Source of the DNA: a virus
Lineage: Duplodnaviria > Caudoviricetes
Length of the DNA: 55,279 bases
Strand: one strand, 5' to 3'
IMG/VR virus record: IMGVR_UViG_3300019768_000001
Coordinates: 1-55,279 of that record
Shown here: positions 14,142-48,883 of the stretch, piece by piece
Position numbering within the stretch: the stretch's first letter is position 1
Layout: each line of letters begins with the position of its first letter
Notes under the pieces: generated by a model
The model's input: the letters and a program-made list of their open reading frames with translations, nothing else
Told to the model about the DNA's origin: nothing
The model's database searches: none
Translations under genes and position numbers: made by a program

Positions 14142-15155
14142 CTAGTTGTGCACGAAGAAAGCAATACCGACGTTCTCACGCTCGAACTGGCGATCCCAGT
14201 TTGCCGCCAATGCCGTCTCTGCCGCTGTTGGTGACTCGCCAGCAACGGACGCAGCAAGCCATTTGTAACCCTCAGGGTGAACGATCCACTGCTTGCGCTC
14301 TACAAGTGTCTCAACGCCTGCGCCATTACCGGCCAGCTCGTCCCATTCAGTAGCAACAGGGCGCTTAGGACTACCTTCTGCATAACCAATAGCACCCATC
14401 TTGTACAGGACAGACACATAGCGAGAGCCAGAGGTGGTACCAGCTATAACAGGCAGCTTCTTATCTACGACAACTCGCTTACCGTTGTAAGTAGGGATCA
14501 TCAGGCCGGTATTTGAATCCTGAATGAAATCAATATCCTGTTGCTTACGCATCTGGGCCATTGTCTGAGGATGAACGGCAAGCATTGCAAGCTGGTCGTC
14601 GGATTCACCCATTGTCGCAACGGTATCAACGAAGCCGCCGAAAGACCATTTGTTTGCAGCCGTGGCGGTATTGCCATCTTCGGTCGATACATCAAAAATC
14701 ATATCTGATGAGTCGTTGGCGATATTCTCAAGGTAAACACCCAAAGTCGTAGCCTGCACCCGCGCGGCAAAGCGCTGCTCCCAGTATGCAGCGGTACGGC
14801 TTGCAATTTGACGCATAGGATCGTCAGAGCCAAGCACGGAAGCAACCAGGTTGGCAGACTGCCATGCATTGTTGATATGCAGACGGTATGCGGTCATTTT
14901 GCCAGTGCCAATCTTCTCAGGTGTGGCGCTTACAGCTGGATCGTCAGAAGAAATATTCTCGTTAGACGAGTTTAAATCTTTCCAGTACGGAATTGACGTA
15001 ATATCACCGTCACCATTTGCGCGACCGGCAAGCGTGGCGTTAGTAACCGCGACTCCAGAGGCAATATAAGCGTTGCGGTCTGTTCGGTTTTCCTGCACAT
15101 AAGACAGGTAAACATCTGGGTCAAATTGAACATCGGATAGGCGTACAGCAGCCAT
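14142..15155 (-). CDS. Major capsid protein
   Basis: 337 aa after scaffold; IPYWKDL, PTYNGKRVVVD, LVERKQWIVHPEG motifs. Confidence 0.85.
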   Translation of the reverse strand: MAAVRLSDVQFDPDVYLSYVQENRTDRNAYIASGVAVTNATLAGRANGDGDITSIPYWKDLNSSNENISSDDPAVSATPEKIGTGKMTAYRLHINNAWQSANLVASVLGSDDPMRQIASRTAAYWEQRFAARVQATTLGVYLENIANDSSDMIFDVSTEDGNTATAANKWSFGGFVDTVATMGESDDQLAMLAVHPQTMAQMRKQQDIDFIQDSNTGLMIPTYNGKRVVVDKKLPVIAGTTSGSRYVSVLYKMGAIGYAEGSPKRPVATEWDELAGNGAGVETLVERKQWIVHPEGYKWLAASVAGESPTAAETALAANWDRQFERENVGIAFFVHN

Positions 15156-17776: not shown

Positions 17777-17827
17777 AGATAACACTGCAATCACAGGGCC
17801 GTTCCGCCCTGTATTTCTTTGTTATGT
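17777..17827 (+). mobile_element. attC-like recombination site H (solo)
   Basis: AGATAAC-actgc-AAT(C)ACAGGGC-cgttcc-GCCCTGTATT-tcttt-GTTATGT: R boxes, 5-nt unpaired spacers, bulged C in L''; 44/51 identical to site G. Confidence 0.75.
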
Positions 17828-17828
17828 G

Positions 17829-18074
17829 TCAATACTTACAGGTTGAAATAGTGCCGTCTGCTTCAATTTTTGTTGTTATCCCACCTCGATACCTCGCCAG
17901 AAACATTATGTATTCAACTCCATCAATACATACCACCTCGTATTTACCGTCACCGCCTTGTATCGCGCGCCCAGTTTTTCCTATGTCGCTTCTTTCGCAG
18001 CCCGTCACACATAACAAAGCAATTAAAACGGACAAAGCAAACGCTCTTCGTTTCTTGTTTTTCATAATCTTCAA
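17829..18074 (-). CDS. Small putative lipoprotein
   Basis: Basic N-terminus, hydrophobic core, VTG-C lipobox-like motif; CIDGVEY. Confidence 0.55.
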   Translation of the reverse strand: MKIMKNKKRRAFALSVLIALLCVTGCERSDIGKTGRAIQGGDGKYEVVCIDGVEYIMFLARYRGGITTKIEADGTISTCKY

Positions 18075-18133
18075 TTCCTGCTCAGTTAATTAATTGGTGC
18101 TTTTCCTTTTATCGCAAGGTTACCACCATACCA

Positions 18134-33315: not shown

Positions 33316-33716
33316 TTCAGACCACCTTTATTTTCTTGTTTATATATATCCAGAGTAGGTTTCTAGGTTTAGATAGGCATAACAACTCTAAGGAAACCAA
33401 TATTAATCAGTTAACCTTAGCTGTTATACCTGATATATCCGTCGTAGTGTGTCTTAGGATATCAAGGCAGTCTATTCGATCATGGTCTAATAAACTTAGG
33501 TCAGTATGGTCAATGAACCACCAGAGTCATGCGCTAGACCTACACCTGTTAAGGCAACTCTTAGGCGCTCCCGCTTGCTCTCTGTGCCATGTAGCGGGAT
33601 TGTCACCAGTACGCACCGGTTTTAACCGACATACTGGTCTAGCTGATTACGTGGGATTGCTCGGAGTAATCCCTTTAACCGTTTCTGGCTTCGGGACGTG
33701 GGGCGGGATTTCAGGC

Positions 33717-35878: not shown

Positions 35879-35929
35879 CAATAACACCTCAATAACATAG
35901 ACCTTCGGCTATGTATTTCTCTGTTATAT
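35879..35929 (+). mobile_element. attC-like site D
   Basis: CAATAAC-acctc-AAT(A)ACATAG(A)CC-ttc-GGCTATGTATT-tctct-GTTATAT; two bulged bases on the L'' arm. Confidence 0.8.
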
Positions 35930-35931
35930 TG

Positions 35932-36057
35932 TTAAAACTCTAACATGGTATATTTTCTGCACTCCCAGAATCCTGGCGGTGTAGTCCAGTCGGCCCAGCG
36001 TCTGCGGACAAAAACTTTAAATTTAACGCCTTTATGTGTTCTGTATACAAGCTCCAT
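35932..36057 (-). CDS. Cassette ORF, 41 aa (MELVYRTHKGVKFKVFVRRRWADW...)
   Basis: Fills the segment between sites C and D; not in track. Confidence 0.45.
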   Translation of the reverse strand: MELVYRTHKGVKFKVFVRRRWADWTTPPGFWECRKYTMLEF

Positions 36058-36068
36058 GACAACCCTAA

Positions 36069-36130
36069 ATATAACAATGCAATCAAACAGATAACTCGTA
36101 ACCTCGTTACTCGTTATCGCCGGGTTATGT
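36069..36130 (+). mobile_element. attC-like site C
   Basis: ATATAAC-aatgc-AATCAAAC...GATAAC/GTTATC and GTAAC/GTTAC inner stems...GTTATGT; L pairing imperfect. Confidence 0.7.
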
Positions 36131-36313
36131 TACCTTTTTAATATTTAGTGTAATTTCCACCAGTTCAGTGTTTTCTCTATCATGCTTGTCTGCTACTTTT
36201 TTTAGGTATCGCCTAGCTGGTGTAGCGCTATCAAATATAAGCATGTTTTGGTTTTCTCCATCAACTCTAATCTGTTTCGTTTTACTATCAATCAGTACAA
36301 ATGAACTTTTCAT
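36125..36313 (-). CDS. Cassette ORF, 62 aa (MKSSFVLIDSK...)
   Basis: GAGG RBS; stop TAA lies within the R box of site C. Confidence 0.55.
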   Translation of the reverse strand: MKSSFVLIDSKTKQIRVDGENQNMLIFDSATPARRYLKKVADKHDRENTELVEITLNIKKVT

Positions 36314-36340
36314 TTTTTTAAGCCTCTTGTGTTTTCGGTA

Positions 36341-36399
36341 ACATAACAAGTAAAATCAAAGCTGACGCGCTACGCTTGAAGTTTATTTGGTGGTTATGC
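36341..36399 (+). mobile_element. attC-like site B
   Basis: ACATAAC-aagtaa-AAT(C)AAAG...GCG-tac/cta-CGC...GTTTATT-tggtg-GTTATGC; resembles site F. Confidence 0.75.
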
Positions 36400-36555
36400 G
36401 CCAAGCTCGGCAATACACCCAAGCAGCACAATTCTAAACAGCTCTGGTTTATCTCTATGCCAGTTGCCTAGTGTTTGTAGGCTTTGTCCTGTTAGCTCAG
36501 ATACTTGCGACAGGCTTTTAAGGCCAGCCGCTTTTGCTTGCTGTGATGGGGTCAT
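36394..36555 (-). CDS. Cassette ORF, 53-aa HTH-like protein (MTPSQQAKAAGLKSLSQVSELTG...)
   Basis: Not in track; ATGA-coupled to upstream ORF; stop in R box of site B; paralog of 18134..18322. Confidence 0.6.
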   Translation of the reverse strand: MTPSQQAKAAGLKSLSQVSELTGQSLQTLGNWHRDKPELFRIVLLGCIAELGA

Positions 36556-36764
36556 AGCAACCCCCGCTTCTCAGCATCTTTTAAAAATTCGTCTTGCTGC
36601 TCGACTGTCATGTGGCCAGCTATAGCAAGCTGCACTAATGCCATTAGGCGGTCGTCTTCCAGCTCACCTGCAAATTCTTTAAACATACCGTTTAGTTTGT
36701 TTGATCTTACTAGGCCGTCATTAATCATTTTATTTTGCTCCGTTGCGTTAGTTAGTAAGTACAT
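36552..36764 (-). CDS. Cassette ORF (likely start 36728, MINDGLVRSN...)
   Basis: GGAG RBS before ATG at 36728. Confidence 0.5.
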   Translation of the reverse strand: MYLLTNATEQNKMINDGLVRSNKLNGMFKEFAGELEDDRLMALVQLAIAGHMTVEQQDEFLKDAEKRGLL

Positions 36765-36829
36765 TGTTACAAACTATTTGCTCCTTGCCTAGTCTTTTTG
36801 CAAATTACTTTAAATTAATTGTAGAAAGC

Positions 36830-36882
36830 GCATAACAAAGCAAGGCAATCGGATGCAAGCACCGTTGCTCGCAAAGATTATT
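36830..36882 (+). mobile_element. attC-like site A (degenerate R')
   Basis: GCATAAC-aaagc-AAGGCAATCGG(A)TGC-aa-GCACCGTTGCTC-gcaaa-GATTATT; shares AACGGTGC..TCCGATT core with site E. Confidence 0.65.
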
Positions 36883-37312
36883 TGCTCTATTTGATGCGCC
36901 GACTATTTACCAATCAGCACATCGAATAAAACGCCCTGCCGCAGGAATCCGGGCCAGACCATGAAAAGAGGAAAAATATCAAAACCCCTTGCCTGCTTGC
37001 ACATTGATTCGGCTCTGTGTGCTCCACTGGAGATTCCGCGCATCATGTAAATCCAATGGACGGCAGCTTCAAAGCTACACAAAGCTAATTATCGCGGACA
37101 TAATGCCAGATCCGCGCCCTGATATAGGGTATTAATGTGACTGTTAGCGCCACCCTCCCCGCTGTGACAATATTGTCGGAAAGGTGACGCTAAGGAATGC
37201 GCTCTGTCGTTCCCATAATTTTATACACAACCACAATGCAATTTATTGAACAAACACACTTTGGTTAATGTTTAAGTTATGGCAAAGCGCATTATTTAGC
37301 GCAACTAACAGT

Positions 37313-37531
37313 CTACGGCAAGCTATCTTCGAGCTCCTTTTTTTCATCTTCGTCTATCAATCCTTTTTCGTACATTTCAACAATAAAACCATTAAACCCG
37401 CTGACAATATTGGTAAAATAACGACTTGAAACATGCGGGCCTAAACAAACCACTACAGGAATAAGAATCGCCGCTAAAATAGCGAATACAGCAAGATTAA
37501 AAAATAACCATGCCCCTATTATATTTTTGAT
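37313..37531 (-). CDS. 72-codon membrane protein ORF with ATC at the start position
   Basis: AAGGAGG RBS, then ATC-AAA-AAT..., TM helix, acidic tail, TAG. Confidence 0.45.
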   Translation of the reverse strand: MKNIIGAWLFFNLAVFAILAAILIPVVVCLGPHVSSRYFTNIVSGFNGFIVEMYEKGLIDEDEKKELEDSLP

Positions 37532-37549
37532 ACCGCCTCCTTGTTTAAT

Positions 37550-37620
37550 TGGCAGCCCTATCAGGAATCGAACCTGAATCGTTACAAATCAGCCACACTG
37601 ATACAGATGACGGCGCTCGT
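37550..37620 (-). ncRNA. tRNA-derived fragment (T arm + acceptor 3' strand + CCA)
   Basis: TCAGG-TTCGATT-CCTGA-TAGGGCT-G-CCA; no recognisable D or anticodon arm. Confidence 0.45.
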
Positions 37621-37732
37621 ACACCGCGAAATAACGACACAACCAGGATGGCAATTGATCTTATATGCTAATTTTTCAGACGAGCATAATTAATGATTGA
37701 TCATTGCCGCCCTATAATGTTCGGGCTTTAAA

Positions 37733-37809
37733 TGGGGCCACAAACGGGACTCGAACCTGCGACCTCTCGCTTAGGAGTCGAGCGTTCTATCCAACTGAAC
37801 TAATAGCGC
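37733..37809 (-). tRNA. tRNA-Arg(CCT)-like, acceptor stem poorly paired (possible pseudo-tRNA)
   Basis: GTTC-AGTTGGATA-GAAC D arm, CTCCTAA anticodon loop, GGTTCGAGTCC T loop, encoded CCA; about 3 acceptor mismatches. Confidence 0.6.
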
Positions 37810-37814
37810 TTAAG

Positions 37815-37888
37815 AGCTGAAGGCCGGATTCGAACCGACGCAATACCAATGCGAACAAAGGCGGGTTTTCCAGTTTCCCCACTTCAGC
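37815..37888 (-). ncRNA. tRNA-like element with aberrant anticodon arm
   Basis: Perfect GCTGAAG/CTTCAGC acceptor, GGG/CCC D stem, GTCGG-TTCGAAT-CCGGC T arm; anticodon stem does not pair; no CCA. Confidence 0.55.
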
Positions 37889-38230
37889 TTAAATTGACCA
37901 GACTCTTCTCAGAGTGTAGAGGAATGTTAGATAACCCCTAACCGGGTAGATTATCACCTCCTTACTTCGCCCCGTGATATTAGAATTAAAACGGTTACAG
38001 CTTTTCGGTTGGCTAAATACAGTAAAATTATGAGGCTGCACCTATCATCTTTTCAGACCTGATGGATAGCCAGGAGTCTTTCCATGTAAGATTTTTGGCG
38101 ACTCTTTAACGTGCTATTTCCTTCCCGTTGCCCTTCACTGTATTGGTGTAGGCACCTGCCAAATTGATCCAGTTAGGAGCGTCCATCAGCAGAAACCTAC
38201 CCAATACACACCGCTTAGCCGGTGAATCTA

Positions 38231-38392
38231 TGCATTAAAAATCAAGCTGAAGACCAAATTCCCAACCGATGATCGCGTCTACCTAATGACGCCTACTCAG
38301 GCTGCAGCCTGCTTATAGCCCACCCCGTCGACTAGGAGGGTGCCAGCGCCATGTATACTCACAACACTGAAAACAGCTTGATTTTTAATGCA
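38231..38392. repeat. 19-bp perfect inverted repeat enclosing a structured interior
   Basis: TGCATTAAAAATCAAGCTG ... CAGCTTGATTTTTAATGCA. Confidence 0.8.
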
Positions 38393-38742
38393 CACTGGTT
38401 ACGCCAGTGAATCGGATTTACTCTTATCTGATTGTGCTTTATTGGCCCGCACTTACCGCCGTAGTGGTCTAACGTTATCCTAACCATATTCAACCTGTTC
38501 AACTGCACCAGGCTTATGAATAGGCATCCAACTTTTTGACATTGGATCAGGTCTTTCTCTATGGCGATTCATACAGGCAAGTTGCAATAAAAATAATAAC
38601 ATCTCACCTTCCTTGTTAAGTCTGCCAGATTAACCGCTGGCAGCTCCGGTTTTGTCGGGTAACTCCGGCAACGAATGGCAACCCGCTGCCTGCAAAACAA
38701 TAATAGCAAATTAATTTAAACAGGTGGTATTAGACGTTGGTA

Positions 38743-40764: not shown

Positions 40765-41365
40765 AACCCCTTTGCCCAGACTTCAACCGGGCCTGAACAT
40801 CAATGAATAGTTTTCCAGCAAAGTCCACAGGGTCTAACTTGTTATTCTTTGCGTAAGATTTGAACTTGGCCAAAGCTGGCTTCTTGCCGACTTTCTTCAT
40901 GCCAGCACACCAATAAGTTTCAAATGCTTCAGCGCACACATCATCGAATGATGATGAATTATCTTTATATAACTCTTTGTTATCTTCTTTGTTATATAAG
41001 GGCACTTTATGACCCTTGCCAGATGTCGTTTCCGACCCTTGCGCAAGGGCGCTTTCCGACCCTTGCTGAACAACGTTGTAATACTTAGCTTTATTTACGG
41101 TCATCATCCTTTTTTTCCCGTAATTCGTTACTTTGGTATCCCGAAAAATCCAACCTTTATCGCTAAGCGACTTTAGAACCGACTTAACACGACGCTCAGA
41201 TAAATCAAAAAACTCAGCAAGATACTGATCACTGGCAAAGCACGGGCCTGTTCTTGAAAGAGCATCGATCTCAGCAAGAAATAAAACCTCCTGCTTAGTG
41301 ATCTCCGTTGAGCTCCAAAGCTCTACTGGTATCCAGATTCCTGTAAACCCCCTTTCATCGCTCAT
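40466..41365 (-). CDS. Replication initiator (lambda O-like, N-terminal HTH)
   Basis: FTGIWIP...CFASD.YLA.F; KKVGKK.A...HPTTYFNQERW; internal iterons. Confidence 0.8.
   Translation of the reverse strand: MSDERGFTGIWIPVELWSSTEITKQEVLFLAEIDALSRTGPCFASDQYLAEFFDLSERRVKSVLKSLSDKGWIFRDTKVTNYGKKRMMTVNKAKYYNVVQQGSESALAQGSETTSGKGHKVPLYNKEDNKELYKDNSSSFDDVCAEAFETYWCAGMKKVGKKPALAKFKSYAKNNKLDPVDFAGKLFIDVQARLKSGQRGFAEMHPTTYFNQERWSDEISSGNRQSGNSQHQGDKHAERQAKLDEWERQMLSGSSQQCQDVLGPHDGDIRGQVEQGSRGYAADRPALSLDDSHWQAGEK
41011..41066. repeat. Probable origin iterons
   Basis: GACCCTTGC at 41011, 41034 and 41058 inside the initiator gene, next to an AT-rich tract. Confidence 0.6.
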
Positions 41366-41856
41366 TTCATATGCTCCATTGTGTATTCTGCAAAATGCTC
41401 AATATCCACGTCTTTAAACTTTTTGATATCAAATAAATCAAAATACCTTCTGGCCACGTGAAGAAATCGGCCTTTATTCTCCATGCATAGATAAAAGAAA
41501 TAATTATTTGAAGGCTCACATAACGGGCTATGCGAACACATAGATGCTACAAATGAAGGCCATGGAACAAAGAAGTTTCTTTCTCCAATATAGTTCGCGG
41601 CATCAAGGGCCTCTTGCGGCGAAACGGAAAACATCTCACCATGAACAACCCTATCCTGAAAGAATCGCTTCAGCATGCTCTCCCTTTGTGATGGGTTTGT
41701 TACCTCTAAGCTCCAAAACAATGAGAACGTATAGCCTTTGTAGCACCGCTTTAGCTCTGAAACCCGATCTTCTGGACGCTTTCTTGTGAACCCGATCTTG
41801 CACCAGTTAGGATTTTGATCTACCGATGCTATGTAGATATTTCCGGTAAATATCAT
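41362..41856 (-). CDS. T5orf172/GIY-YIG-type nuclease domain protein
   Basis: GNIYI...KIGFT.K.PE.R..EL...GE.F. Confidence 0.75.
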   Translation of the reverse strand: MIFTGNIYIASVDQNPNWCKIGFTRKRPEDRVSELKRCYKGYTFSLFWSLEVTNPSQRESMLKRFFQDRVVHGEMFSVSPQEALDAANYIGERNFFVPWPSFVASMCSHSPLCEPSNNYFFYLCMENKGRFLHVARRYFDLFDIKKFKDVDIEHFAEYTMEHMK

Positions 41857-43819: not shown

Positions 43820-43975
43820 ATGGCTATAAAGAAAAACAACCCGTCCTCTTATATGAATGACGAGCAGCTGAGGCTGGCAACAGAAGCCTCAGTTAAAGAA
43901 GGTAGAAGTCTGTCATCTTTTATTCGTATGGCAGTAGAAGAAAAAACAAACAAGGTGTTAGGGGTGAAAAAATGA
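43820..43975 (+). CDS. Ribbon-helix-helix-like regulator, 51 aa (not in track)
   Basis: GAGG RBS; A..EGRSLSSFIRMAV.E pattern; ATGA overlap with next gene. Confidence 0.65.
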   Translation: MAIKKNNPSSYMNDEQLRLATEASVKEGRSLSSFIRMAVEEKTNKVLGVKK

Positions 43976-44322
43976 GCAGGGCTTACACTGTGTACAAGGG
44001 TGAAATTAAAGGTAGGCTGGTTTACATAGGAACAACAATACAAAAGCCAAGCAATAGATTTAGATGGCATAAAAATAATGGTAAACCATTCGATTTTACT
44101 GTTTTGAGTCAGCATGAAACATCAGAAGAGATGCTAGAAGAAGAGTTAAGGTTGATAAAAAAACACAAGCCAAAATACAACAAGATAAGACACAGAAAGC
44201 AAAATCTAAATGTTAAATTATCAAAGGAGGATCTAGATAAAAGAGTGGGAGATAGCGAGTGGTGTCAAAGCTGCTTAAAGCGTCGAGTAAATAATGGTTA
44301 CTCTAAGTGTTATTACTGTTAA
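43972..44322 (+). CDS. GIY-YIG family nuclease
   Basis: YTVY...VYIGTT....R.RWH...E..LI....PKYN. Confidence 0.7.
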   Translation: MSRAYTVYKGEIKGRLVYIGTTIQKPSNRFRWHKNNGKPFDFTVLSQHETSEEMLEEELRLIKKHKPKYNKIRHRKQNLNVKLSKEDLDKRVGDSEWCQSCLKRRVNNGYSKCYYC

Positions 44323-45769: not shown

Positions 45770-46273
45770 ATGGATGAATATGATTTATATAACAACGGAA
45801 AAAGCATACCAGAGGTAAGCGATGAGACAGGGATACCAAGATCAACACTGAGATTCAGGTTTAAAAAAGCAGGAATATTAAGGTCTAGGGCTGATGGCAT
45901 TAAAAACGCATCAAAAAACGGTCGATTAGGTTCAGGTCTTAGAGGTAAGAAAAGGGTTTTCACAGAAGAGTGGAAGAATAATATTTCAAAAGGAAAAACC
46001 GGAAAGGGGCTTGGTGTATCTGTAAAGCCTAGTGGATATATAGAGATAACGATGGGAGAAAACAAGGGTAGGTTGGAGCATGTTGTAATAATGGAGTTGA
46101 TAATAGGAAGAAGGCTTGCGTCAAACGAGTGCGTTCATCATAAAGATGAAAACAGGGCCAACAACGACCCTGAAAACCTTCAGTTAATGACAAGAAGCGA
46201 GCATGCATCTTTGCATGCTAAGCAAAATATAAGCAAAAGAAATAGAGATAAGAGAGGTCGTCTTTGTGGCTAA
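45770..46273 (+). CDS. HNH homing endonuclease
   Basis: N-terminal HTH/NUMOD-like; EH.VIME..IGR.L...E.VHHKDE.R.NN..ENL.LMT.SEH..LH. Confidence 0.85.
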   Translation: MDEYDLYNNGKSIPEVSDETGIPRSTLRFRFKKAGILRSRADGIKNASKNGRLGSGLRGKKRVFTEEWKNNISKGKTGKGLGVSVKPSGYIEITMGENKGRLEHVVIMELIIGRRLASNECVHHKDENRANNDPENLQLMTRSEHASLHAKQNISKRNRDKRGRLCG

Positions 46274-46968: not shown

Positions 46969-47595
46969 ATGGGAAACAGCAAAAAACGCTGTAAGCAGTG
47001 CAAGAAATACGTTCCGGCTGAATCTGGAATTAAGGTGCCAGCCGGTTTCTTTTGCTCCCATGATCATGCTATTGAGTTTGCCAAAGCAAAGCAGGCTCAA
47101 TCGTCGCTTAAACAGCGCAAGGAGCGCGAACGCATAAAGTCGATGACTGTTAAGGATTTGGACAGAGAAAGCCTTCCTTGGCAGCACAAGCAGACCCAGA
47201 AGGCTTTTAACAGAATGAGGGTCTTGCAAGAGCTGTATTATTATCAATCGAACGGTCTAGAGCCCGTTTGTATTAGCTGCCAGAAACCGCTAGGCGGTGA
47301 TCAGTGGTGCTGCGGTCATTATAAAACCGTAGGCGCTCACCCAGAGCTGAGGTATGACCCTCTAAACACTCACTTGCAGCATAACCGTAATTGCAATATG
47401 GGATTATCGGGTGACATAAAAGGCTATACGTTCGGGCTCGTTGATCGCCACGGCAAGGACAAAGCTGCAGAGATATACGATTATCTGGCGGTAGATAATG
47501 GGCCAAAAAAATACACTTGTGATGAGCTGGAAAAAAACCGAGCAGAGTACCGAAAAGAAATTAGGCAACTAGAGAAAATTGTAACTATCGTCTAA
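46969..47595 (+). CDS. ninG: NinG/Rap-family recombination nuclease
   Basis: CKQCK...FCS..HA; CISCQ...CCGHYKTVGAHPELR.D..N.H.Q...CN..LSG. Confidence 0.85.
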   Translation: MGNSKKRCKQCKKYVPAESGIKVPAGFFCSHDHAIEFAKAKQAQSSLKQRKERERIKSMTVKDLDRESLPWQHKQTQKAFNRMRVLQELYYYQSNGLEPVCISCQKPLGGDQWCCGHYKTVGAHPELRYDPLNTHLQHNRNCNMGLSGDIKGYTFGLVDRHGKDKAAEIYDYLAVDNGPKKYTCDELEKNRAEYRKEIRQLEKIVTIV

Positions 47596-47657
47596 TACCG
47601 GCCAATCCTGATAACCGGTAAATTACAGATTCAAACAATAGCAAGCAAGGGGATAAC

Positions 47658-47870
47658 ATGAGCAAGATAGCAAGCGTTTACGATAAGAATTCAAAGTCAG
47701 TGATTTTAGATATGCGCCATCCGAACAAAGATGTGCCTAGACCTGAAATTGTGATCGACACAGAAACAGAGAAGTACGCCGTTCCGGGCGGGAAGACATT
47801 TGAGCTGCTTCGAGATGCGCGTGTTGTAGCAACTGAGATGTTTAGTAAGGCGGGTTTTGTTTGCCAGTAA
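47658..47870 (+). CDS. Hypothetical protein
   Basis: RBS; stop TAA lies in the R' box of site E. Confidence 0.5.
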   Translation: MSKIASVYDKNSKSVILDMRHPNKDVPRPEIVIDTETEKYAVPGGKTFELLRDARVVATEMFSKAGFVCQ

Positions 47871-47924
47871 CCATATAAATAAACGGTGCAGCGCAGCAAG
47901 TCCGATTTAATTTGCTTGTTATGC
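47865..47924 (-). mobile_element. attC-like site E
   Basis: Minus: GCATAAC-aagca-AAT(T)AAA(T)CGG...CCGTTTATT-tatatg-GTTACTG. Confidence 0.7.
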
Positions 47925-47946
47925 TGCGAATAGATAGGGGGGGAAT

Positions 47947-48120
47947 ATGGGCGTTAGAATGAAAAAGACAGATCGAGAATGGCACGAGTACCCATTAGGG
48001 ACTAAAGCTCACGCCGTTATGGGTGGTTATTGGGAAAGAGTTAAGGGTGGCTGGAAATGGTGTACAGGTTCTACCTTTCCTACTCCCGGTGCTGACTGGC
48101 GAGTAATAGAATTACCATAG
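47947..48120 (+). CDS. Cassette ORF, 57-aa Trp/Gly-rich protein (MGVRMKKTDREWHEYPLGTKA...)
   Basis: Not in track; G-rich RBS; fills the segment between sites E and F. Confidence 0.55.
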   Translation: MGVRMKKTDREWHEYPLGTKAHAVMGGYWERVKGGWKWCTGSTFPTPGADWRVIELP

Positions 48121-48122
48121 CA

Positions 48123-48182
48123 ACATAACCCCTTAAACAAACGCAGAGCGTAGCGATGTAGCTTTGCTTTAAATTGTTATAT
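48123..48182 (-). mobile_element. attC-like site F
   Basis: Minus: ATATAAC-aattt-AAA(G)CAAA...TTTGTTT-aaggg-GTTATGT; resembles site B. Confidence 0.75.
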
Positions 48183-48194
48183 TACGGAGACATT

Positions 48195-48629
48195 ATGGAT
48201 TACTTAAAACTATTGCAAGAAAGCTACAGAGAAACAGCAGAGAATAGGGATGACCCAACTTTAGAAAAACTAGAGTTCTTGGCTGAGGGTATTTTCGGAT
48301 TCACGACATACGAGAATGTGGTTTCTTCTACGATGGCGCAAAAGGCACTAGAAGTATGCAAGGCGATAAGTGACAAAAAGACATTTGATTACATTGCCAG
48401 TGAAGAGGGAAATCTTTGGTATCTGGTAATGGTTAATATGCCGTTTTTTGAAAACAGGCTTAATTGGGGTACTTCTATTCGTGGTGCTTGGTGGGATCTG
48501 TGGGGCAATAAAGAATTCACCATTGAGAGTTGCGAACTGTTTGGCGGTGAACAGATACTAGAGCTTAAATTGAATGACAGTGAATGGGTTAAGTTTATAG
48601 AAGCTATGATTAAGTTCGCGGAAGAGTAA
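48195..48629 (+). CDS. Cassette ORF, 144-aa hypothetical protein (MDYLKLLQESY...)
   Basis: GGAG RBS just after site F; stop abuts site G; WGTSIRGAW motif. Confidence 0.65.
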   Translation: MDYLKLLQESYRETAENRDDPTLEKLEFLAEGIFGFTTYENVVSSTMAQKALEVCKAISDKKTFDYIASEEGNLWYLVMVNMPFFENRLNWGTSIRGAWWDLWGNKEFTIESCELFGGEQILELKLNDSEWVKFIEAMIKFAEE

Positions 48630-48679
48630 TATAACAAAGAAATACAGGGCGGAACGTCCCTGTTATTGATGTGTTATGC
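48629..48679 (-). mobile_element. attC-like site G
   Basis: Minus: GCATAAC-acatc-AAT(A)ACAGGG(A)CG-ttc-CGCCCTGTATT-tcttt-GTTATAT. Confidence 0.8.
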
Positions 48680-48883
48680 CAAAGTCTAATACCGCACCGA
48701 CTAAGTAAGGCGCACAATAAGAAAAAACGGAGGGTCGAACATGCGCAGAAAGTCAGCGGTAACATCGGTTATCAGGCATAAAATCAAAGACCCTCAAAAA
48801 CTAGCAGATGCGGAAGTGTCAGCCATCAATTATTTAAATCTGGGTGATACAGCTCACCGGGCGATTAAAAAGGCGCTTAATCT

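Follow-up and report, generated by a model that had tools for sequence, protein, structure and literature searches.

attC-like sites bounding predicted single-gene cassettes in three arrays of a marine phage genome

Clusters of attC recombination sites that lack an integrase have already been described in phages, and the study dedicated to them tallies, among 10,705 phage genomes, 17 attC clusters without an integrase, besides 3 integrons and 1 lone integrase (Qi et al, 2023; PMC9892861). According to the same study, the virulent Pseudoalteromonas phage H101 (PH101, NC_029094) has no integron integrase in its genome, and two of its sites recombined with IntI1 (Qi et al, 2023; PMC9892861). Here, a comparable arrangement is described in IMG/VR record IMGVR_UViG_3300019768_000001, the complete record (55,279 bp, with direct terminal repeats) of a marine, lambdoid-style phage, which was analyzed at its full length and is referred to as the window; like H101, it has no integron integrase. 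At 47865-48679, downstream of ninG, three hairpin sites (E, F, and G) alternate with two segments holding one open reading frame (ORF) each. The evidence supports E, F, and G as predicted attC recombination sites and the two segments as gene cassettes, which together with two more arrays in the same genome would form clusters of attC sites lacking integron integrases (CALINs); because the phage carries no intI, the elements are filed under this name and not as integrons. That they are cassette arrays of the integron type, assembled by an integrase supplied in trans, is the explanation we regard as probable.

Small accessory ORFs bracketed by conserved intergenic stem-loops are also known from the promoter(early) stem-loop (PeSL) cassettes of T4-type phages and from lambdoid "morons", whose movement is ascribed to homologous recombination at conserved promoter/stem-loop sequences. 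The sites of the window differ from these in that no promoter consensus accompanies them (promoter-like matches near the sites of arrays 1 and 2 were not above those in shuffled sequences), and in that they match attC models. A study on Acinetobacter phages reportedly mentions attC sites as well.

The locus downstream of ninG (array 2) is composed as follows; R1 is an attC covariance model, and G001 is a second phage genome, both introduced below.

46969-47595, plus strand: ninG (Holliday-junction resolvase family; PF05766, E = 1.1e-26), the backbone gene upstream of array 2
47658-47870, plus strand: 70-aa ORF, its stop codon within the outer box (CAGTAAC) of site E
47865-47924 (boxes 47867-47922), minus strand (the strand matched by the attC model): site E, long-type, attC-like; R1 18.4 bits, full length
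47947-48120, plus strand: cassette ORF c1, 57 aa, between sites E and F
48123-48182 (boxes 48125-48180), minus strand: site F, long-type, attC-like; R1 27.5 bits, E = 2e-4 in the window, the top match
48195-48629, plus strand: cassette ORF c2, 144 aa, family phrog_18399, between sites F and G
48629-48679 (boxes 48631-48677), unstranded: site G, short-type, core of 47 nucleotides (nt); GC-rich, terminator-like hairpin; R1 13.4 bits on the plus strand
48680-48699, plus strand: 3'-end relic of a RusA-type gene, directly after site G; last codons, stop codon, and trailer match the G001 gene

When the sequence was read again, the three sites claimed in the earlier note proved to be present, each bounded by (A/G)TAAC...GTTAT, with site E reading GTAAC...GTTAT in ORF orientation. 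The ends of the segment between E and F (GTTATGCTGC, 47918-47927, and GCAACATAAC, 48120-48129) are complementary at 9 of 10 positions, and those of the segment between F and G (GTTATATTAC, 48176-48185, and GTAATATAAC, 48626-48635) at all 10, as that note had it. The segments are also free of spare DNA: the first consists of a 24-nt leader with a G-rich ribosome-binding site (RBS) and the 57-aa ORF (47947-48120), the second of a 14-nt leader (GGAG) and the 144-aa ORF, whose stop codon lies inside the box of the next site. The pattern does recur on the opposite strand in array 1 (sites Z, A, B, and C, 36883-35879). The central proposal, that attC-like sites flank promoterless single-ORF cassettes, is supported by four independent lines: recognition with a covariance model, whole-length alignment with experimentally validated phage attC sites, complementarity of the cassette ends, and the coincidence of array ends with breakpoints between related phages. 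The two further arrays of the window are listed here.

35879-36883, ORFs on the minus strand: array 1
36830-36883: site Z (degenerate)
36552-36764 and 36394-36555, minus strand: cassette ORFs between sites Z and A
36341-36399: site A
36125-36313, minus strand: cassette ORF between sites A and B
36069-36130: site B
35932-36057, minus strand: cassette ORF between sites B and C
35879-35929: site C
17777-18125, minus strand: array 3
18009-18125: site Y (117 nt)
17829-18065: lipoprotein-like ORF
17777-17827: site X

Two subtypes of site can be told apart. The long subtype comprises E, F, A, B, Y, and Z and measures 56-62 nt (Y, 117 nt). The short subtype comprises G, C, and X, which are GC-rich, 47 nt long, and, by eye, ∼85% alike (site G being ∼85% identical to X and C), and one of them closes each array. 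All sites share the inverted outer boxes AAC...GTT in the form (A/G)TAAC...GTTAT, GTAAC replacing ATAAC in sites E and Y and in site s1 of G001, and Z being without a proper second box; the same boxes are present in the attC sites of Vibrio phage record MK672802, Shewanella phage record MZ568829, and phage H101. The outer boxes of attC sites follow the consensus RYYYAAC (R'') and GTTRRRY (R'), of which the strict RYYY rule is not obeyed by the sites (CATAAC). Pairs of the form ATAAC-N30-60-GTTAT occur 9 times in the window versus 1.89 expected (SD 1.43), a count reached in 0 of 100 shuffles.

The cassette ends carry a signature of their own. Over the 6 nt beyond the 5-nt cores, the eight pairs of neighboring sites score 4, 5, 4, 6, 3, 5, 5, and 2 (mean 4.25 of 6); the two ends of one and the same site reach a mean of 1.18 (n = 11) and the remaining combinations 1.53 (n = 113), and the observed sum for neighbors was reached in none of 20,000 permutations. 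In five of the six window cassettes, end complementarity over 9-11 nt is almost perfectly kept. The two cassettes of G001, which hold other cargo, conform: the ends of one (GTTATTCGG and CCGAATAAC) match at 9 of 9 positions, and the second pair matches except for an indel. The signature was also read in the genuine integrons of MK672802 and MZ568829 (8 of 8 in the latter) and in H101 (9-10 of 10). A scan of the window for complementary GTTATnnnnn/nnnnnATAAC pairs (spacing 80-1500 nt, complementarity at least 9 of 10) yielded seven distinct pairs (14 counting both strands; the corresponding counts in Markov shuffles averaged 2.58 and never exceeded 8), five of which are located at the arrays. 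As the interior stems pair well and differ between sites, the point of exchange must lie in or beside one of the two boxes, as would be predicted if a cassette passed through a circular form carrying one hairpin site. A transposon-like reading with terminal inverted repeats was rejected, because the repeat extensions differ among cassettes and only the 5-nt core is shared. By eye, there is a weak hint that the outer boxes of E and G pair as well (5 of 7 positions if shifted by 1 nt), but no other array repeats this and no weight is placed on it.

For recognition of the sites by structure, R1 was trained on 15 genuine attC sites: 7 belong to the integron of Vibrio phage Va_90-11-286_p16 (MK672802) and lie beside intIA, and 8 belong to Shewanella phage vB_SspM_M16-3 (MZ568829) and lie beside an annotated integron integrase. 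Its structure (R5-spacer3-L5-bulge-3bp) was taken from the folds of these training sites; MAFFT alignments of the window-phage sites (A1 and A2) misaligned the first box and were excluded from model building. R1 returned nine matches in the window at E ≤ 10, the best six of which were full-length and at the exact predicted boundaries (F, 27.5; A, 21.7; X, 20.9; B, 20.4; Y, 20.0; E, 18.4 bits), so that 6 of the 10 window sites score at least 18 bits; two further matches (15.8 and 13.1 bits) look like noise. Site s2 of G001 scored 15.0 bits. In 360,203 bases of negative control (53 loci, 35 of them picked for containing the pattern ATAACA..GTTAT), no match reached 18 bits, the best being 14.9. 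As a positive control, four H101 sites of 57-77 nt within a 2.1-kb stretch, taken as the published cluster, scored 35-41 bits, and attC sites of M16-3 outside the training set 14.9-62 bits.

The attC sites of H101 and M16-3 can be aligned over their full length with sites F, A, and E and with G001 s2 (ATAACAAG..AAA.CGGAC..CGCTACGCT..GGNGTTAT). H101, with which no sequence relationship at the level of the phages was seen, carries tandem short attC sites (57, 57, 57-58, and 77 nt), close in format to the long sites of the window, and shares with them the interior motif CGCTACGCT and the ends ATAACAAG and GGNGTTAT. The sites of MK672802 share their 5' end (ATAACAAAGCA.TTAA.) and interior (..GA..C..AACGCT..) with Y, Z, A, and E on the strand opposite the ORFs, as well as the R-spacer-L-bulge architecture; unlike the window sites (47-62 nt; Y, 117 nt), which are accompanied by no integrase and by antisense ORFs, they measure 93-128 nt and lie beside intIA after ORFs on the same strand. 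M16-3 resembles the window in being a phage record with attC arrays and real GTAAC...GTTAT sites, and differs from it as a reportedly inactive prophage with an integron integrase in the record and sites of 74-135 nt. By sequence and structure, the comparison shows that the predicted sites belong to the attC family of marine gammaproteobacterial integrons and phage H101. Unlike H101, the window has its sites in three separate arrays, and the last site of each is a conserved, GC-rich short one of 47 nt, poorly recognized by the attC model. Its cassettes consist of single ORFs on one strand, whereas those of H101 hold ORFs on both strands; two H101 sites are recombination-tested, and those of the window are predicted from sequence.

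At the level of the hairpin, site F has an R(5)-spacer(3)-L(5)-bulge layout and an internal CGCTACGCTC motif on its minus strand, and site G follows as R6-spacer4-L4-bulge; genuine attC folds show (((((...(((((.(((. Imperfect hairpins of the attC type are formed by F, A, E, Y, G, and X; the hairpin of B is irregular, and Z is without its second box. The folding energy of site G is exceptional compared with shuffled sequence (z = -3.3 and -3.0 for the two strands), and G also matched a scan of arrays 1 and 2 for terminators (GC-rich stem plus T-run), on both strands. This, together with the position of the hairpins directly after stop codons and a repeat (GTCTAATACCG) found after both ninG and site G, would suit ordinary terminators or RNA-stability hairpins, the mosaic boundaries then arising by illegitimate or short-homology recombination as at lambdoid module junctions. 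We hold this to be very unlikely: G alone matched the terminator scan (no site of array 1 did), and neither the pairing of boxes with the neighboring site instead of the own end nor the full-length matches to the attC model would be explained. Rfam at gathering thresholds found no family at the sites; its two matches in the window are tRNA matches elsewhere.

Some of the sites have peculiarities of their own. The lipoprotein-like ORF (MKNKKRRAFALSVLIALLCVTGC...) has its RBS, start codon, and signal-peptide codons within site Y, whose T-rich arm is translated into the hydrophobic core of the protein. Site B is composite: ATAAC...GTTAT boxes also enclose a small palindrome in its interior (about 36117-36091), and a 3' part of it resembles the 3' arm of site X. 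A further hairpin, W (33377-33429; 14222-14263 in G001), has the same boxes (ATAACA...TGTTAT) and is kept in both phages without a cassette context; it is not recognized by the attC model (7.8 bits in the window, 6.5 in G001). In G001, an R1 match of 17.8 bits with mismatched L pairs lies outside the described arrays (locus L029, 14972-15018). In H101, two nearly identical stretches of ∼90 nt with an RBS at their end follow two attC sites (locus L082, about 674-760 and 2082-2166); the ORF after the first copy is interrupted by a stop codon, and an 82-aa ORF is open after the second.

G001, found by scanning for the short site, is a second complete phage (55,858 bp) that is collinear and mosaic with the window. 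It carries an array of its own after the SSB (single-stranded DNA-binding protein) gene, in the order s1, an ORF of ∼110 aa, s2, an ORF of 198 aa, and s3, with cargo completely different from that of the window. G001 lacks window array 1 and the whole stretch from ninG to site G; at the position of ninG, it has a RusA-like gene instead (a reading of the ORF, not a scan result), and the RusA-type gene of which a relic follows site G is intact there. Homology to G001 is lost 4 nt short of the last box of site C (35876) and picks up again 2 nt past the GTTAT of site G (48679); at array 3, it breaks off inside the last box of X (17784) and returns at the outer box of Y (18124). Over 49 bp, s3 and site C have the same sequence (100% identity), and both flanks are unrelated. 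As far as these two genomes can tell, the comparison shows that a predicted array is either there or missing as a whole in one related phage relative to the other, and that the breakpoints fall at the outer boxes. The preserved end complementarity and the identity of site C argue for recent events.

The same comparison admits of a less dynamic history, in which the sites are truly derived from attC and are fossils, the arrays having been captured once and now moving as blocks by homologous or Red-type recombination in their flanks, without present excision. The two genomes do differ by whole arrays and not by single cassettes, and the phage has a general recombination set (a PDDEXK exonuclease-like protein (DUF3799), SSB, NinB, and NinG); the missing second box of Z, the GTAAC boxes of E, Y, and s1, and the low R1 scores of C, W, and Z would likewise fit decay. 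Near-perfect complementarity of the ends in five of six window cassettes, the complete identity of site C in both genomes, and the recombination of phage attC sites of the same type with IntI1 (Qi et al, 2023; PMC9892861) speak against it, and we judge such a history unlikely.

The earlier note has to be corrected on the strand of the sites. Its attC-like sites and cassettes were borne out; the attC top strand of the long sites, by both model and bulge position, is the strand opposite the ORFs. All five long-type R1 matches of the window (F, A, B, Y, and E), as well as Z (12.2 bits) and G001 s2, are on that strand, site A scoring 21.7 bits there versus 7.5 on the other. In array 1, A, B, and Z all match on the plus strand, opposite the ORFs; in array 3, Y matches on the plus strand and X on the minus strand. 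The arrangement of an ORF on the top strand with its site downstream is therefore not the one found: the long-type matches are antisense to the ORFs. In F and G, the bulged base is in the 3' arm of the coding strand, and the same was read by hand for A and C; genuine attC top strands have a single bulged base in the 5' arm. The strand that recombines in integrons, the "bottom" strand, has its extrahelical bases in the 3' arm and is cut in its 5' box. Bulge position and model thus indicate that, at the long sites, the ORF-coding strand would be the recombinogenic "bottom" strand. Reversed cassettes exist in integrons, where the rule that ORF and site share a strand is usual and not defining. 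Nor is the antisense arrangement unique to the window phage, because the annotated coding sequences gp133-gp135 of H101 are also opposite the attC strand (unannotated H101 ORFs of 50-82 aa are on the attC strand).

Reversed polarity, the absence of IntI from the phage, the 47-nt short sites with the bulge in the other arm, and cargo consisting of phage genes instead of bacterial cassette genes could together be taken to mean that another site-specific recombinase of phage or host (e.g., a Xer-like or nuclease-family protein) is at work and that the likeness to attC arose by convergence on an AAC/GTT hairpin. The likeness, however, runs through the interior of the sites (the CGGAC and CGCTACGCT motifs), beyond the boxes; the 29 distinct ORFs scanned against Pfam contained no other site-specific recombinase, and the tyrosine recombinase family PF00589 had no match in either genome; and H101 shares the polarity of its annotated genes with the window. 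Convergence of this kind is very unlikely in our estimation.

Both proteins encoded in array 2 have relatives. Those of c1 fall into 39 protein clusters at E ≤ 0.001 and occur in nine phage records (six Bacteroides, two Tenacibaculum, and one Vibrio phage). The c2 protein is phrog_18399 (PHROG E = 9.5e-39), with 696 clusters; of the 53 phage records in which it occurs, 47 are those of Vibrio phages. Members of the family have about 145 aa and invariant W, G, R, and S positions. The AlphaFold2 (AF2) model of c2 is confident (pLDDT 92.4) and had no match at E ≤ 0.001 in a Foldseek search of the PDB; a protein atlas returned no usable match for c2, and the best VIA-align hits (Z 4.2, winged-helix regulators) were below the tool's stated noise level. 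As far as these matches indicate, the cargo is made up of widespread phage accessory ORFs and not of bacterial cassette genes.

If the arrays are read as integron cassettes, each cassette would once have been a circle with one complete hairpin site. A host integron integrase, supplied in trans and working on folded single strands, would have inserted it and may still excise it, cutting within the AAC/GTT triplet of one box. Cleavage may occur between the last A and the C of ATAAC, beside the preceding stop codon, in which case each site would belong to the ORF that follows it; this choice keeps the lipoprotein-like ORF, whose RBS and signal peptide are inside Y, in one cassette and agrees with the break in homology found at Y's outer box. 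The cassette ORFs would then be read by ordinary phage transcription, and the short GC-rich site closing each array may be a resident phage site that receives cassettes and possibly doubles as a terminator. We infer that the integrase is the host's; this is supported by the published finding that phage-borne attC sites, two from H101 included, recombine with IntI1 (Qi et al, 2023; PMC9892861). A bolder and only tentative version, which we think possible at best, holds that the lineage keeps the resident short hairpins/terminators as landing pads, into which a host integrase would insert cassettes of phage genes, each with a miniature attC site upstream of and antisense to its ORF and transcribed by the phage.

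Several observations weigh against assembly by an integron integrase. The integron-integrase family (TIGR02249) and PF00589 had no matches in the window or G001, although the control genomes all respond to both searches; the enzyme is purely inferred. The folding of E (z = -0.16 and +0.05) and F (z = -0.37 and -0.75) is no better than that of shuffled sequence. R1 scores were weak for G (13.4 bits), Z (12.2), W (7.8), and C (5.7), the last three obtained with filters off, and site s1 of G001 was not matched; moreover, R1 was built in this analysis with a shortened calibration, so its E-values are rough and the argument rests on bit scores, co-location, and controls. Cargo homologues in four other phage contexts (c2 in Vibrio phages 217E38-1 and 1.161.O and in locus L001, c1 in Vibrio phage 13VT501A) are flanked by no complete site, a further correction to the earlier account; in 1.161.O, TAATATAAC after the stop codon and a hairpin are kept, without the GTTAT box. 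Among 401 sampled bacterial genomes (of the order of a Psychromonas genome), c2 had one marginal match only (E = 8.9e-4). In the collections scanned by exact pattern, the site types were seen in G001 only: for the short type, the viral contigs gave 3 stretches, 2 of them chance matches in coding DNA and G001 the only genuine one, the genome contigs 35, none with a hairpin, and the metagenome contigs 1, the G001 contig; for the long type, the viral contigs gave none. Finally, the R1 matches to the short sites X and G are on the coding strand, so that model and bulge disagree on their polarity; the breakpoints at G, C, and X fit a crossover at GTTAT (in ORF orientation) better than one at ATAAC; and the G001 insert is flanked by TGTTAT on both sides, which again favors the GTTAT box. 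On these three counts, ATAAC and GTTAT both stay candidates for the crossover box, and the logic is that of an integron whichever of them is the crossover point.

In the remainder of the window, scans identified NinG, NinB, SSB, the exonuclease-like protein, a lambda-P-like replication protein, a KilAC antirepressor, a portal-associated domain (DUF4055), and a Mu-F-like protein. The closest database matches are short or distant and mostly to Vibrio and Shewanella phages, as were the blastn and tblastn matches among 50,697 phage records (short or distant only), and a search for further relatives anchored on the 136-aa protein adjoining the array turned up only G001. The 70-aa ORF upstream of site E has no Pfam or PHROG family. 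The repeat GTCTAATACCG follows the ninG stop codon (47592-47604) and site G (48685-48697), where it is part of the RusA-type relic, and is also found in locus L031 (about 14300-14320). Three homing-endonuclease-like genes are present (T5orf172/MUG113, 41362-41856; GIY-YIG, 43972-44322; HNH_3, 45770-46273), the HNH gene between the recombination genes and SSB. The two Rfam tRNA matches are in tandem on the minus strand at 37736-37888 (38.0 and 35.7 bits; gathering score 29); ARAGORN found no tRNA in 37000-38500 despite them, and part of the stretch is 94% identical in G001.

Particular to this phage, and unusual, are the three arrays, the miniature sites (47-62 nt), ORFs antisense to the predicted attC top strand, the conserved short closing site, and turnover bounded by boxes. 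Clusters of attC sites in phages are rare, as the published counts indicate (17 in 10,705 genomes; Qi et al, 2023; PMC9892861), and the genome pair adds comparative evidence, in that arrays at three loci turn over exactly at the boxes. For the question of how the polarity of attC sites is recognized, they offer natural substrates that are compact (47-62 nt) and have their bulge reversed. If a host integrase truly acts on the sites, integrons would have a part in phage mosaicism and would help small phage accessory genes to move; and if short resident sites do act as landing pads, the integron machinery would be a regular phage-to-phage route for accessory genes, with a cassette pool separate from that of bacterial integrons.

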